A stretch of DNA of 64,000 nucleotides. It comes from Phycisphaeraceae bacterium. Lineage in GTDB: Bacteria; Planctomycetota; Phycisphaerae; Phycisphaerales; Phycisphaeraceae. Made by a program: the position numbers and the translations under genes. Shown here piece after piece: positions 1 through 61,231 of this stretch; within the stretch, counting starts at the first letter, position 1; each line of letters starts with the position of its first letter. Where the stretch lies: positions 10,605-74,604 of the forward strand of contig JADLFV010000123.1 of assembly GCA_020849625.1 (NCBI GenBank). Direction: 5' to 3'. The notes below the pieces were generated by a model, which was given only the letters and a program-made list of their open reading frames with translations, was not told where the DNA came from and did no database searches.

Positions 1-639
1 GAGTGGTGGGGCAACAATTCCTACGCCAGGAGCCGCGCCCGCCAGCTCGCCGAGATGGGTTATGCCGCGTTCGCTGCCGACATGTACGGCATGGACAAGA
101 CCACCGAAGACCCCGAGCAGGCCAAAGCCTGGGCATCGGCTTTTTACCAGGACCAACGCCTGTTGCGCGACCGTGCGGAAGCGGGCCTCGACATCCTGCG
201 CAAACTTCCGCTGTGCAAAGACCAACCCCTGGCTGCCATCGGCTTCTGCTTCGGCGGCAGCACCGTGCTGCAACTGGCCTGCGACAACCCCGATCGCCTC
301 GCGGCCGTGGTCAGCTTCCACGGCAATCCCGCGCCCCCGGAAGAAAAAGATCCCGAGCACATCCAACCCGCCATCCTCATCTGTCACGGCGCGGACGATC
401 CGTTCGTCTCCCCCGAGTCCTTGCAGGCCGCCATCGACGGCTTCAGGCAGCACAACGCCGACCTGACGTTGATCGAATACGAAGGCGCCAAGCACAGCTT
501 CACCAACCCCGAAGCCGACGGCAGCTTCAACGAAGGCGCGATCTATCACGAGGAAGCCGCCAAGAAGGCCTGGGCGGACATGCAGGAGATGTTCGAGCGG
601 GTGCTGAAGCCGCAGGCTGAGACCAGCCATGAGCCATGA
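1..639 (+). CDS. Dienelactone hydrolase family protein (5' end cut by window edge)
   Basis: Frame 1 is open from nt 1 (EWWGNNSYARSRARQLAEMGYAAF...), stop TGA 637-639. DLH-type alpha/beta-hydrolase hallmarks: GFCFGG, ICHGADDPFV, EYEGAKHSF. Confidence 0.75.
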   Translation, partial: EWWGNNSYARSRARQLAEMGYAAFAADMYGMDKTTEDPEQAKAWASAFYQDQRLLRDRAEAGLDILRKLPLCKDQPLAAIGFCFGGSTVLQLACDNPDRLAAVVSFHGNPAPPEEKDPEHIQPAILICHGADDPFVSPESLQAAIDGFRQHNADLTLIEYEGAKHSFTNPEADGSFNEGAIYHEEAAKKAWADMQEMFERVLKPQAETSHEP

Positions 640-650
640 GCCACCGAGGG
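626..650. repeat. Solo tandem-unit arm (GCCATGA GCCATGA GCCACCGA GGG), no inverted partner nearby
   Basis: Same GCCACCGA/GCCACCAA unit family as the hairpin at 10307-10398. Overlaps the stop codon (637-639) of the hydrolase gene. Confidence 0.5.
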
Positions 651-688
651 TTCGATCCAAGGACCAAAAACCAACAATCCAACACAAA

Positions 689-720
689 CATCAGCGATCC
701 GCAATCAGACATCAGAGATT
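689..720. repeat. Solo copy of the CATCAGCAATCCGCAATCAGACATCAGAGATT arm
   Basis: 31 of 32 nt identical to 43068-43099 (right arm of hairpin 43006-43099); related to 54414-54444. Confidence 0.8.
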
Positions 721-793
721 CTCCTCTCTCTCCACCCTCCGTCATCTGCCATTCCCTGCCCCTGGCGGGTAATCATCCACCTGCTGCGCTCTG

Positions 794-827
794 AGCCCGC
801 TGGTCCAACGATCGGCGGGCTTTTTTT
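794..827 (+). terminator. Rho-independent terminator
   Basis: Stem AGCCCGC (794-800) pairs with GCGGGCT (815-821), followed by T7 (821-827). Confidence 0.65.
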
Positions 828-1107
828 GATTCGTTCGAGTGTGAACAATTAATTTTTAGAATATGCAGTTCTGCGATATGGGCGCGCACAGTGCCAGTTA
901 TAATGCAGCCGCGGGGTGTTCGTTGGGGCGAGTTCATTGCACGCCTGTTTCGGGAGAACACCCTTGGCCCAGTTGATTCCGTTGACCACAACGTCGTCGC
1001 TGCCCGGCGGCAGCGCGATGTCGCTATCGGATAGACACTACGGGGGCATCGCGCCCGGGTAATTCATCGTTTCATCGAATCGTCCGAAATGCAGGAGAAA
1101 GAAACCG

Positions 1108-58476: not shown

Positions 58477-58524
58477 GAGGGGCAACTTTGATGTCGCAGC
58501 GCCCAAGTGCAGCGCGGCGGCGGA

Positions 58525-60720
58525 TCACTTGATGAACAGCATCTCCTGGTAGGTCGGCAGCGGCCAGAGGTCGTCGGCGACGTGGCCTTCCAGCACGTCG
58601 GCGACCTTGCGCACCTCCAGCATGGCGACCAGCACCTTGTCACGCATGTACTCGGCATGTTTGAGCGTCGAGCCGTGCGGGGCGCCGCCCATGGCTTTCT
58701 CCAGGGCGTTGAGGTTGTCCTGCAGGGCCTTGACGTGGTTGGTGATCATGTCCAGCGTGTCGGTGTCGAAGCTGTAACCGACGGCCTTGAGGTTGGCGCA
58801 GGTGGCGGCCAGTTCGCTCTGGTAGCGGATCACGGCCGGGAAAATCATGGTGCGGCCGATCTCCAGCGTGAGGTTGGCTTCGATCTTGACCGCCTTGACG
58901 TACTGTTCGAGGTAGATCTCCTCGCGGCTTTCCAGTTCGCGCTTGGAGAGCACCTTGTACTTCTTGAAGATGTCGATCACTTCCTTGTCGGTGATCGCCT
59001 GCAGGGCCTCGGGCGTGGTGCGCAGGTTGGGCAGGCCGCGCTTCTGGGCCTCCTTGTGCCAGGCTTCGTCGTAGTTGTCGCCGTTGAAGATGATGGCGCT
59101 GCATTCCTTCATGATGGCCTGCACCAGCTTCTGCACGGCGTCATTGAGCTTCTTGGGATCACCCTTGGAGGACTTCTCCAGTTCGGTGGCGCAGTAGTCC
59201 AGCGAATCGGCGACGATGGTGTTCAATGCCACCAGCGGGCCGGCGATCGACTGGCTGGAGCCGACGGCGCGGAACTCGAACTTGTTGCCGGTGAAGGCGA
59301 ACGGCGAGGTGCGGTTGCGGTCGCCGGCATGGCGCGGCAGCGGGGGCAGGGTGTCCACGCCCACGTTCATCACGCCGCCGGGCTTGGAAGTCTTGGCGGT
59401 GCCGGCCTTGGCGATCTGCTCGAAGACGTCGGTCAACTGCTCGCCGAGAAAGATGGAAATGATCGCCGGGGGCGCTTCGTTGGCGCCGAGGCGATGATCG
59501 TTGGCGGCATGAGCGACCACGGCCCGCAGCAGTCTGCTGTGACGGAACACCGCCCGCATGACCGCGGCGCAGAACACGAGGAACTGGGCGTTGGCGTGCG
59601 GGGTTTCGCCGGGCTCGAGCAGGTTGCCCTGCGTGGCGTTGCCCAGCGACCAGTTCAGGTGCTTGCCCGAACCGTTGACGCCGGCGAACGGCTTCTCGTG
59701 CAGCAGGCATTCCATGCCGTACTTCTGGGCCACGCGCTTGAGCGTGATCATGACCATCTGCTGATGGTCGGTGGCGACGTTGGCGTTCTCATAGACCGGG
59801 GCCAGTTCGTACTGGGCGGGGGCCACTTCGTTGTGACGGGTCTTGATCGGCACACCCAGCTTCAACAGCTCGTGCTCGCTTTCGAGCATGCAGGCCAGCA
59901 CGCGCTCGGTGATGGCGCCGAAGTACTGATCTTCCAGCTCCTGGCCCTTGGGCGGCGGAGCGCCGAAGAGGCTGCGGCCGGCGTTGACCATGTCGGGGCG
60001 AGCGAAGAAGAAGTTGCGGTCGATCAGGAAGTATTCCTGCTCGGCGCCGCCGGTGGCGTAAACACGGGCGATGTTGCTGTGCCCGAAGAGCTTGAGGATG
60101 CGGCGGGCCTGGGTGTCCAGGGCCTGCATGGAGCGCAGCACAGGGGTCTTCTTGTCCAGGGCTTCGCCGGTCCACGATACGAAGGCGGTGGGGATGGCCA
60201 GCGTGGTGCCGTTGGGATTTTCCAGGATGTAGGCCGGCGACGTGACGTCCCATGCGGTGTAGCCGCGGGCTTCGAAGGTGGCGCGGATACCGCCGGAGGG
60301 GAAGCTGGAAGCGTCGGGTTCGCCCTGGATCAACTGATCGCCGGTGAACTCGGCGATGGCGCTGCCGGCATAATCGGGTGAGAGGAAGCTGTCGTGCTTC
60401 TCGGCGGTCAGGCCGGTCAGTGGGAAGAACACGTGCGTGTAGTGCGTCGCGCCCTTCTCGATGGCCCAGGCCTTCATGGCGGCGGCGACGGTGTCGGCGA
60501 TCGATTCGTCGATCGGTTCGCCGGCCTCGATGGTTTTCATCAGCGACTTGAAGACCGCCTTGGGCAGGCGCTCTTTCATCACCGGCAGGCCGAAGACGTT
60601 GCTGCCGAAGATCTCGCTGGCCGTCTTGTCCCGGAAGTTCAACGGCTCGGTAATGGGTTTGTAGTTGGTGACCGCGTTGATCGCGTTCAATCTTGCCGTG
60701 CTGCCACTCATCGCTGTCAT
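58525..60720 (-). CDS. glnN: Glutamine synthetase type III
   Basis: 731 aa; N-terminus ...[23 protein letters not shown]...[12 protein letters not shown]...; NGSGKH, typical GSIII layout. Confidence 0.9.
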
Positions 60721-60901
60721 GACTCCGTGTGAATGTTTGCCCGGTCGGCTGCGCCTCCGCTCCGCGCGTTCGCCGCCACCGTTGGATCAGGGCAGAGACT
60801 GTAGCCGATGTTCAACTTTTTTGCAACCCATGATGCCGGTGCCTATTTTTTAGGCACGTCCGGCGCGCCAGGGCCGCCTTGAGTAAGGATTGGGCAGGGG
60901 A

Positions 60902-61012
60902 GGAAGGGATGAGGTATGAGGATGAGGGATGAAGACTGAAGGATTGCTGGAGTCGCCCTCTTCACATCATCCTTCATCCTTCATCCATCATCCATCATTC
61001 ATCATCCATTCC
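60902..61012. repeat. Long hairpin, GGATGA(G/A)-unit family
   Basis: Left arm 60902-60944 (GGAAGGGATGAGGTATGAGGATGAGGGATGAAGACTGAAGGAT) is the imperfect reverse complement of the right arm 60966-61012 (ATCATCCTTCATCCTTCATCCATCATCCATCATTCATCATCCATTCC). Confidence 0.85.
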
Positions 61013-61085
61013 CCGCACCTCGACGCATCAAACCGATGCAACTAGAATGGCCCCTTCGCTCGGCCAGTGACCGGCCGACGGCCGC

Positions 61086-61157
61086 GCCACCTTAGCTCAG
61101 CGGTAGAGCAGTGCTTTCGTAAAGCACAGGTCGTGGGTTCAAATCCCACAGGTGGCT
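61086..61157 (+). tRNA. tRNA-Thr(CGT)
   Basis: GCCACCT acceptor paired with AGGTGGC; D arm GCTCAGCGGTAGAGC; anticodon stem GTGCT/AGCAC with loop TTCGTAA; T arm GTGGGTTCAAATCCCAC; no encoded CCA. Confidence 0.9.
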
Positions 61158-61231
61158 TGAGGAGGCTTGAGTTGTCAGGCTTGAGGCTTGAGGCCAGCGA
61201 ATCTCTAGCCTCAAGCCTCATCCCTCAAGCC
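61154..61231. repeat. Long hairpin, GGCTTGA 7-nt-unit family
   Basis: Left arm 61154-61194 (GGCTTGAGGAGGCTTGAGTTGTCAGGCTTGAGGCTTGAGGC; begins inside the tRNA-Thr 3' acceptor end). Right arm 61208-61231 (GCCTCAAGCCTCATCCCTCAAGCC; overlaps the stop at 61225-61227 of the minus-strand AKR gene). Confidence 0.85.

Follow-up and report, generated by a model that had tools for sequence, protein, structure and literature searches.

The stretch described here (the window) comprises 64,000 nt of a contig from a Phycisphaeraceae bacterium (Planctomycetota; GenBank assembly GCA_020849625.1, contig JADLFV010000123.1, positions 10,605 to 74,604). Its genes are ordinary housekeeping and polysaccharide genes, according to a map based on GC content at third codon positions (GC3) and checked with Pfam. 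Between these genes lie twelve long hairpins, E1 to E12, whose two arms are tandem arrays of short units, and it is these elements that concern us. They constitute a real, non-random and clade-enriched class, which, judged from its sequence features, appears best filed as the planctomycete form of intergenic short-tandem-repeat inverted pairs and not as a new class. The elements are as follows (strand does not apply to any of them).

1733-1827: E1, hairpin of 9-nt units CGCAGAGAA, with arms of 29 nt and a loop of 37 nt; the 5' arm and half of the loop form the final codons of the open reading frame (ORF) 1108-1779
10301-10397: E2, hairpin of 8-nt units AGCCACCR, between two co-directional genes of the polysaccharide cluster; one arm begins at the stop codon of the upstream gene
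38595-38688: E3, hairpin of 10-nt units CGCAGATGAA, in the divergent gap upstream of the likely EPSP-synthase start (38589) and 5 nt from it
43006-43099: E4, hairpin of 7-nt units ATGTCTG/CAGCAAT, filling a 101-nt convergent gap
44793-44896: E5, AT-rich hairpin of 7-nt units TTTTAGA, after ssb
47673-47851: E6, nested hairpin with outer arms of 42 nt made of CGCAGAGGA units, between pyrB and gmk
47744-47812: inner hairpin of E6, made of CACAGATTA units
48461-48585: E7, hairpin of 7-nt units SAGTAGG, between the convergent gmk and O-antigen-ligase-like genes, with the stop codons of both genes in its arms
50816-50922: E8, hairpin of 7-nt units SAGTAGG, with the stop codon of an aminotransferase gene in one arm
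52126-52217: E9, hairpin of 8-nt units TGATTGCT, between the stop codon of a peptidyl-prolyl isomerase (PPIase) gene and the start of an aminotransferase gene
54352-54444: E10, hairpin of 7-nt units ATGTCTG/CAGCAAT, filling the convergent gap between PilZ and ndk genes
60902-61012: E11, hairpin of 7-nt units GGATGAG, in the divergent gap between glnN (glutamine synthetase III, GSIII) and tRNA-Thr
61157-61238: E12, hairpin of 7-nt units GGCTTGA; its first unit overlaps the 3' end of tRNA-Thr, and its 3' arm holds the stop codon of an aldo/keto-reductase (AKR) gene

The initial annotation of this DNA had proposed at least 12 inverted repeats of one architecture, and all 12 of the places that it listed do hold inverted repeats with periodic arms. 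The arms are 23-42 nt long and 70-90% complementary, and at each locus both are tandem arrays with a period of 7-10 nt, present in 2.6-6.4 copies (Tandem Repeats Finder, TRF). The spacers between the arms vary from 8 to 95 nt, a broader range than the 15-60 nt first estimated. Two independent detectors were used. One pairs TRF arrays that are reverse complements of each other and no more than 200 nt apart, and returned 10 pairs from the window and none from each of 30 dinucleotide-preserving shuffles. The other collects inverted repeats (IRs) that are 22 nt or longer and free of gaps, and checks their arms for autocorrelation; it returned 9 long IRs (0 in 10 shuffles), of which seven have periodic arms, with arm autocorrelation of 0.65-0.94. 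The TRF-pair detector misses degenerate cases (E4, E7 and E10, and those at the relatives' loci L012 and L092), so the densities reported below are lower bounds, and the ranking of lineages by density came out alike with both detectors. All statistics cover the 64-kb window and fragments of the genomes of relatives.

When folded as RNA, each element gives one long stem on either strand; the minimum free energies lie between -28 and -121 kcal/mol, and the z-scores between -3.4 and -16. The same elements are present in five independent assemblies (NCBI, ENA, JGI, Logan), and this recurrence rules out an assembly artefact, which the initial annotation had named among the outcomes able to overturn its proposal.

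Ten of the 12 elements are located at gene 3' ends, most of them overlapping the stop codon or tRNA end or no more than 10 nt away from it. The placement originally suggested, at 3' ends or between convergent genes, therefore stands as a bias, with E3 and E11, both in divergent gaps, falling outside it. Considering gaps of at least 40 nt, elements occupy 5/10 of the convergent, 5/19 of the co-directional and 2/9 of the divergent ones, and the occupied gaps are almost filled by their hairpins. On sides that face a gene 3' end, the arm starts between 27 nt inside the gene and 8 nt past the stop codon in 13 of 15 cases, while on sides that face a start codon the distance from arm to start is 5-220 nt. 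The stop codons of four genes, namely gmk, the O-antigen-ligase-like gene, the aminotransferase gene and the AKR gene, are inside arms. Overlaps with these stop codons had been noted before, together with two more, at the ends of a hydrolase and an oxidoreductase gene; all six are real, but the repeats at the last two genes are not hairpins:

625-643, + strand: solitary AGCCATG array over the hydrolase stop codon (ORF end 639), without an inverted partner
25825-25911, strand not applicable: two neighbouring arrays, one of AAAAGTG and one of ATCCTGT/18-mer, with no complementarity between them, in the gap between convergent genes; the former overlaps the oxidoreductase stop codon (ORF end 25839)

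The arms share a polarity as well as a position. Read from the flank to the loop (inward), G exceeds C in 22 of 26 arms (p=0.0005), and the sole clearly C-rich inward arm is that of E2. Stop codons block 50 of 78 frames inward versus 14 of 78 outward; for comparison, the number of blocked frames is 32 ± 3 when the letters of the arms are shuffled, and 35-mers drawn at random from the window have an average of 0.61 of their 3 frames blocked. Of 16 unit families counted in the clade, 12 have an inward stop and 3 an outward stop (inward only, 10; outward only, 1; p=0.012); when letters are permuted inside the units, the predicted number of families that stop inward is 7.4 (P=0.008). Arrays with a period of 7, 8 or 10, none of which is divisible by three, stop translation in every frame. 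Inward stops are missing from the families of period 9, and ORF 1108-1779 reads through the 5' arm of E1 into the loop. We regard the enrichment as suggestive only. Stop codons were rejected as the primary design feature of the arms: the enrichment holds, but it follows in part from the C-poor inward arms; the unit of the Xanthomonas repeats described below has the same polarity without a stop codon; and survivorship at ORF ends explains much of it. We therefore keep them as a secondary or permissive feature.

The elements are concentrated in one lineage. Periodic-armed long IRs occur at ~1.1-1.6 per 10 kb in the window and at 1.9 per 10 kb in a sister metagenome-assembled genome (MAG; GCA_964471555.1, represented by the loci L001 and L093). 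The value is 0.3 in relatives whose aminotransferase is 78-82% identical, and 0.08 in ~0.9 Mb of other planctomycete loci, so that the density in the window and its close relatives is 10-20x that of the latter. Long IRs are rare in these distant loci, yet 7 of the 15 found there have periodic arms.

Comparison of orthologous gaps, which the initial annotation had put forward as a check, revealed gain, loss, exchange of unit families, change of unit number and inversion. The sister MAG has an identity of 0.803 to the window at 4-fold degenerate sites (n=1921) and retains E5, E6, E7, E8 and E12. In L001, one arm only of E7 is longer by 14 nt (two units), and the whole nested E6 is inverted relative to its flanks, with the mismatches that distinguish the arms moving with the inversion. 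E4 is absent from L001, where unrelated sequence takes its place, and the E3 site holds a hairpin of the AGCCATG family instead. At the E11 site, L093 has two extra genes, encoding a ThuA-like protein and a GFO_IDH_MocA oxidoreductase (window 60897-61080 versus L093 3079-5227), and the E11 hairpin thus sits at an indel junction. The collinearity with L001 ends exactly at the outer edge of E8 (window 50922/L001 1-1571), and the aminotransferase gene is not beside the ligase-like gene in L001. In other relatives, the pyrB-gmk site of E6 holds a single hairpin (L092), the outer 3' arm (L091), or only AACCGC/TCTGCGGTCAA (L089), which is either a deletion or excision scar or a seed. The gap between the PPIase and aminotransferase genes, site of E9, has a hairpin of a different family in L012, and at the E8 site L017 has a hairpin of another unit family directly downstream of the aminotransferase gene.

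Two further differences from the sister genome were noticed. The 527-nt gap between two AKR genes (window 62278-62804) measures only 28 nt there (L093 1912-1940). The sister genome also has a second tRNA-like gene (L093 579-685), which is 78.5% identical to the tRNA-Thr region (window 61083-61186) and is likewise trailed by short arrays of the TGAGG type (AGGGGTG x2.4). The repeats downstream of the tRNA may have been duplicated together with it.

Three of the retained elements are conserved above the neutral level. Overall identity to the sister MAG is 0.884 for arms and 0.858 for loops, with the arms exceeding the 4-fold sites at p=1e-4. The arms of E5-E7 are 0.96-0.97 identical, well above the neutral proxy; the interior of E6 is at 0.88, and the E5 loop, at 0.86, is only slightly above the 4-fold value of 0.80. 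The E7 loop (49 nt, 48498-48546) is identical in L001 at 48/49 positions (0.98) and is partly alignable in L091. Such identity, far above that of the 4-fold sites, suggests that this loop may have a function of its own, such as that of a small RNA or of a binding site.

The unit sequences had been described as unrelated, but comparison showed that not all of them are. A CRCRGA core with a tail of 2-4 nt, together with the ends ACCGCAGA...TCTGCGGT, is common to E1, E3, E6-outer and E6-inner, and these ends recur at at least six other loci from several genomes. The corresponding pattern ACCRCRGA...TCYGYGGT occurs four times in the window versus 0.14 expected per shuffled window, and at eight sites in L001, L017, L057, L089, L092 and L093, including non-orthologous loci. 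One of these relatives' loci carries an E1-like copy downstream of glnN (L093 7989-8120), which is non-orthologous and 76% identical over 132 nt, flanks included. The similarity of arms is significant for E7/E8, E4/E10 and E3/L089, and the E3 arms are 96% identical to those at L089 8237-8407, a different locus. The E9 units are of a related CAAGCAAT type, and AGCCA-type units recur at 625, at 10307 and at L001 13830. No two loops are similar, however, and what recurs is therefore the arms and not whole elements. [quoted passage not shown] No direct repeats flank E1, E3 or E6, whose flanks were inspected and extend the palindrome instead, and the 64-kb window has no near-identical copies of an element.

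Around the E1-like hairpin in L093 we also observed an AT-rich palindrome (TTAGTTTTCTAGAAAACTAA), which occurs on either side of it (7810-7840 and 8120-8140). The palindromes and the hairpin are within a gap of ~800 nt that the window lacks.

Several known systems resemble these elements, and the initial statement that no class with this combination had been described has to be withdrawn. Of the GGGAATC heptamer arrays of Xanthomonas, each genome has 70-75 convergent inverted pairs with ~4 copies per array, which are able to form stem-loops (Rehm et al. 2015, PMC4692102). On the sense side the G-rich strand overlaps a stop codon or is at most 50 bp from one, and on the antisense side it lies immediately upstream of the ORF that follows; the pairs are enriched in gaps whose ORFs are aligned or convergent, with few in divergent gaps, and their positions are kept across related species while their lengths vary (PMC4692102). 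The planctomycete elements have the same architecture, polarity and proximity to stop codons. They belong to a different phylum, and the units differ: the Xanthomonas pairs, as described there, have essentially one unit, which can form a G-quadruplex (G4) and has no stop codon, whereas the window has at least 10 unit types of period 7-10 in 64 kb, most of them stop-bearing and most not G4-capable. Spaced G3 runs are confined to E7, E8 and E11, and a single dominant G4-capable unit, as in Xanthomonas, is not found here. Nesting and inversion of whole elements are seen in the planctomycetes, without mention for Xanthomonas in the available part of PMC4692102.

The short tandemly repeated repetitive (STRR) sequences of cyanobacteria are also similar, in that 7-bp tandem units form hairpins between genes, for example at hupS-hupL, with several unit families per genome; their function is given as unknown, with transcript stability or translational coupling suggested (PMC2670836). 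These sequences differ in occurring in AT-rich genomes of filamentous cyanobacteria and in being described there as mostly direct arrays, and homology of their units to the planctomycete ones is not expected. The intergenic TAACTGA heptamers of Beggiatoaceae and cyanobacteria carry stops, and since forward arrays stop all three frames they can overlap ORF ends only; their distribution is phylogenetically sporadic (MacGregor 2015, PMC4679880). Unlike the planctomycete arrays, they have a single unit, are nearly always direct (169 direct sets versus 1 indirect), and lie mostly just upstream of start codons (PMC4679880). REPs, bacterial interspersed mosaic elements (BIMEs) and REPINs are intergenic, mostly 3' of genes, hairpin-forming and of several families, REPINs being inverted doublets with a spacer, and mRNA stabilisation and termination are among their proposed roles. 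However, a REP is a palindrome of 20-40 bp with a GTAG or CGTC tag, whereas the arms here are direct arrays in which GTAG and CGTC are merely parts of some units, and REPIN copies share their spacer, whereas the planctomycete loops are unique. A literature search found no description of such elements in Planctomycetes. They differ from the known cases in the number of unit families per genome that share one architecture, in the period range of 7-10, in nesting, and in the documented turnover and inversion.

With regard to origin, we see about an even chance that the hairpins are built and remodelled in place, by slippage and by copying between arms, and are kept as structures at the 3' ends of transcripts. 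The elements are short-tandem-repeat inverted pairs with imperfect stems of 25-45 bp made of 7-10 nt units. A short stem would gain length as slippage during replication duplicated a unit of one arm, after which its partner would catch up through template switching, an established mutational mechanism in quasi-palindromes, or through inter-arm recombination. The inverted arms would also permit the flipping or deletion of a whole element. Such pairs persist mainly at gene 3' ends, with the G-rich and usually stop-bearing strand read first from either side, and in transcripts they would most likely act as bidirectional 3'-end structures (an exonuclease barrier, a processing site or an insulator) that are not canonical terminators. 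Growth in place fits the change of units in one arm of E7, the correlated copy numbers of the two arms (r=0.77), the inversion of E6 and the possible deletion scar in L089, as well as the E12 units that are continuous with the local sequence and the periodic arms of rare long IRs in distant lineages. Specifically, the 14 extra nt in one E7 arm of L001 point to slippage, the E6 inversion to recombination between arms, and the overlap of the first E12 unit with the 3' end of the tRNA to local seeding. A process-driven origin had been suggested in the initial annotation, and the unrelated loops and the 7/15 periodic-armed IRs of distant loci largely bear it out.

The possible roles of these structures are narrowed by what the elements do not resemble. 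No element matched an Rfam family at the gathering threshold, where the only matches in the window were two tRNAs, and under permissive settings the only matches, all below threshold, were to precursors of eukaryotic miRNAs, that is, to long hairpins of a generic sort. Canonical intrinsic terminators are similar in that a hairpin directly follows a gene and is bidirectional in convergent gaps, but they have a stem of ~5-14 bp, a small loop and a 3' U-tract, whereas in the elements the stem measures 25-45 bp and has mismatches at regular intervals, the loop measures 8-95 nt, and a T-tract is usually missing. This general lack of T-tracts had been noted at the outset and is upheld. Three consensus terminator scans stayed at the level of shuffles (13 versus 14.1, 11 versus 13.8 and 16 versus 13.6 expected), and none of their hits coincides with an element. 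Two textbook intrinsic terminators are present apart from the elements, at 793-822 (+) and 58476-58451 (-), with GC-rich stems of 13 bp and 10 bp, respectively, followed by T-runs; the former comes after the array 625-643 at the hydrolase stop, and the latter comes after glnN and is conserved in L093. The organism thus uses canonical terminators alongside repeat hairpins, and the identification of the elements with canonical terminators is ruled out by the missing T-tracts and by the location of true terminators elsewhere. The most likely role would be one at transcript 3' ends, whether as a barrier to exonucleases, as a site of RNase III-type processing or as insulation between neighbouring transcription units, given the tight position at stop codons, the occupation of half of the convergent gaps, the above-neutral conservation of E5-E7, and the persistence of a hairpin despite changes of family.

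Adjoining the glnN terminator there is an inverted repeat with 27-nt arms that are not periodic (ATAGCCGGCGAGCC..., 58342-58436), which overlaps the end of ORF 57915-58403, an ORF without a Pfam match.

Several observations weigh against growth in place with a 3'-end role. The E8 arms (0.82) are at about the neutral level and the E12 arms (0.70) are below the 4-fold identity. Two elements are in divergent gaps, where E3 is just 5 nt from a start codon, and E2, E8 and E9 belong to clusters of co-directional genes, in which termination would come at a high cost. Fold energy does not favour the sense strand, as both strands fold about equally well, and there is no signal of RNA-specific (G.U) selection. 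The tests of stop codons and polarity were post hoc, with unit families defined by eye. Finally, pure growth in situ does not predict arms that are common to unrelated loci and genomes and that have conserved ACCGCAGA...TCTGCGGT ends, and it is this sharing that keeps a mobile or gene-conversion component alive as a rival.

In its full form, such a rival would treat the elements as non-autonomous mobile DNA comparable to REPINs, BIMEs or foldback MITEs, with a trans-acting enzyme that recognises the ends or units and spreads pairs of arms, or single arms that pair later. We consider this unlikely, in spite of the excess of the ACCRCRGA...TCYGYGGT superfamily in the window and in relatives, the E1-like copy and the E3-like arms at foreign loci, and the presence/absence and family replacement among close genomes. 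Nested hairpins of the same superfamily in E6 and L089, the remnant resembling an empty site in L089, and the solitary arrays at 625 and 25825 also speak for it. Against it are the unrelated loops of family members, the absence of target-site duplications at CGCAGA members (by inspection) and of near-identical copies within 64 kb, and the continuity of the units with local sequence at E12 and E7. Moreover, the arms differ from REPs in being direct arrays instead of palindromes, and a Pfam scan of 51 window ORFs, 7 of them without any match, revealed no transposase, REP-associated tyrosine transposase (RAYT) or other gene of a mobile element. Another proposal, that the elements are functionless by-products of a lineage-specific mutational bias (slippage and quasi-palindrome template switching, perhaps after a change in a hairpin-processing or repair gene) tolerated wherever they do not harm genes, seems to us doubtful. 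It would account for the high diversity of unit sequences, the fast turnover by gain, loss, indel and inversion, the evolution of E8 and E12 at or above the neutral rate, and the fact that the long IRs of other lineages, although rare, commonly have periodic arms. Survivorship would account for the stop-rich inward arms, as MacGregor (2015, PMC4679880) argued for TAACTGA repeats, and an excess of heptamers, the commonest long simple repeats, is widespread in prokaryotes, with polymerase slippage proposed as their source (Mrazek 2007, as cited in PMC4692102 and PMC4679880). The by-product proposal does not predict the strong G-rich inward polarity, and it is at odds with hairpins that stay in the same gaps while their family changes and with the identities of the E5-E7 arms, the E6 interior and the E7 loop relative to the 4-fold sites, the E5 loop being only slightly above them.

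In a further explanation the elements would work as DNA. The units could bind a nucleoid or repair protein, or a G-quadruplex or cruciform could affect supercoiling or replication, as has been suggested for the repeats of Xanthomonas. In its favour, the two strands do not differ in how well they fold, G3 runs are spaced 4 nt apart in E7, E8 and E11, the G-rich polarity is the same as that of the GGGAATC repeats, and elements coincide with an indel and a synteny break. Most of the units (ATGTCTG, TGATTGCT, TTTTAGA, CGCAGAGA) cannot form a G-quadruplex, however, the units are too varied for a single sequence-specific binding protein, and the elements are commonest in convergent gaps, where positive supercoiling driven by transcription is expected and would disfavour cruciforms; we therefore find an action of this type very improbable. 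Alternatively, the elements could be scars of double-strand-break healing, in which 3' ends were extended by repeated short-template copying or iterative slippage, in a telomere-like manner, and then joined over filler. This would jointly explain the G-rich repeats that run 5' to 3' toward the centre on both strands, the similar unit numbers of the two arms, the unique loops, and the indel (E11) and synteny break (E8), but it strikes us as extremely unlikely; if true, it would imply a clade-enriched break-repair polymerase activity not so far known in bacteria. Growth in place with retention at transcript ends is thus the explanation that we favour.

Other repeats in the window and its relatives lie outside the twelve elements. 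One pair of arrays is intragenic:

31606-31778, inside the HAD-like gene 31376-32560 (- strand): pair of 7/21-nt arrays, 73% complementary

Its arrays, of GATGGCG and TCCGCC types, are in the C-terminal half of the gene, where the L089 orthologue has a short CCATCCG array only; the pair may be a member of the class within a gene, coding for a linker of low complexity. A GC-rich palindrome of 64 nt (GGGTGCCACGGCCGCG...CGCGGGTGTGGCACCC) has two copies in the window (49910-49973 and 56908-56973) and one in L001 (2506-2569). Of the window copies, the first, which L001 conserves, falls within the Wzy_C domain of the O-antigen-ligase-like gene; the second lies either at the N-terminal edge of a PhoPQ-related gene or a little upstream of it. 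These palindromes were set aside as class members, being a different kind of repeat; their two host genes are not paralogues. They may represent a REP-like element that tolerates a coding context. In L094, heptamer arrays of GAGTCTT (x4.4) and TAGGCTG (x8.6) start 6 nt past the glnN stop codon (3815-3916) and the contig ends within them; such arrays seem to break up assemblies of metagenomes.

In many prokaryotic genomes, no long simple repeats are more frequent than tandem repeats of the heptamer type; pairs that form hairpins were described for Xanthomonas in 2015 (PMC4692102), and STRR hairpins since at least 2009 (PMC2670836). The repeats also have practical consequences, as they appear to break assemblies (one contig ends inside arrays) and supply the last codons and stop codons of several genes, and thus affect gene calling in MAGs. 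The planctomycete clade is unusually informative, since it combines many unit families with one architecture and polarity, and since gain of units, asymmetry of arms, inversion, loss and replacement can be followed among close genomes. It makes testable how such repeats grow, whether they spread, and whether they mark the ends of transcripts.

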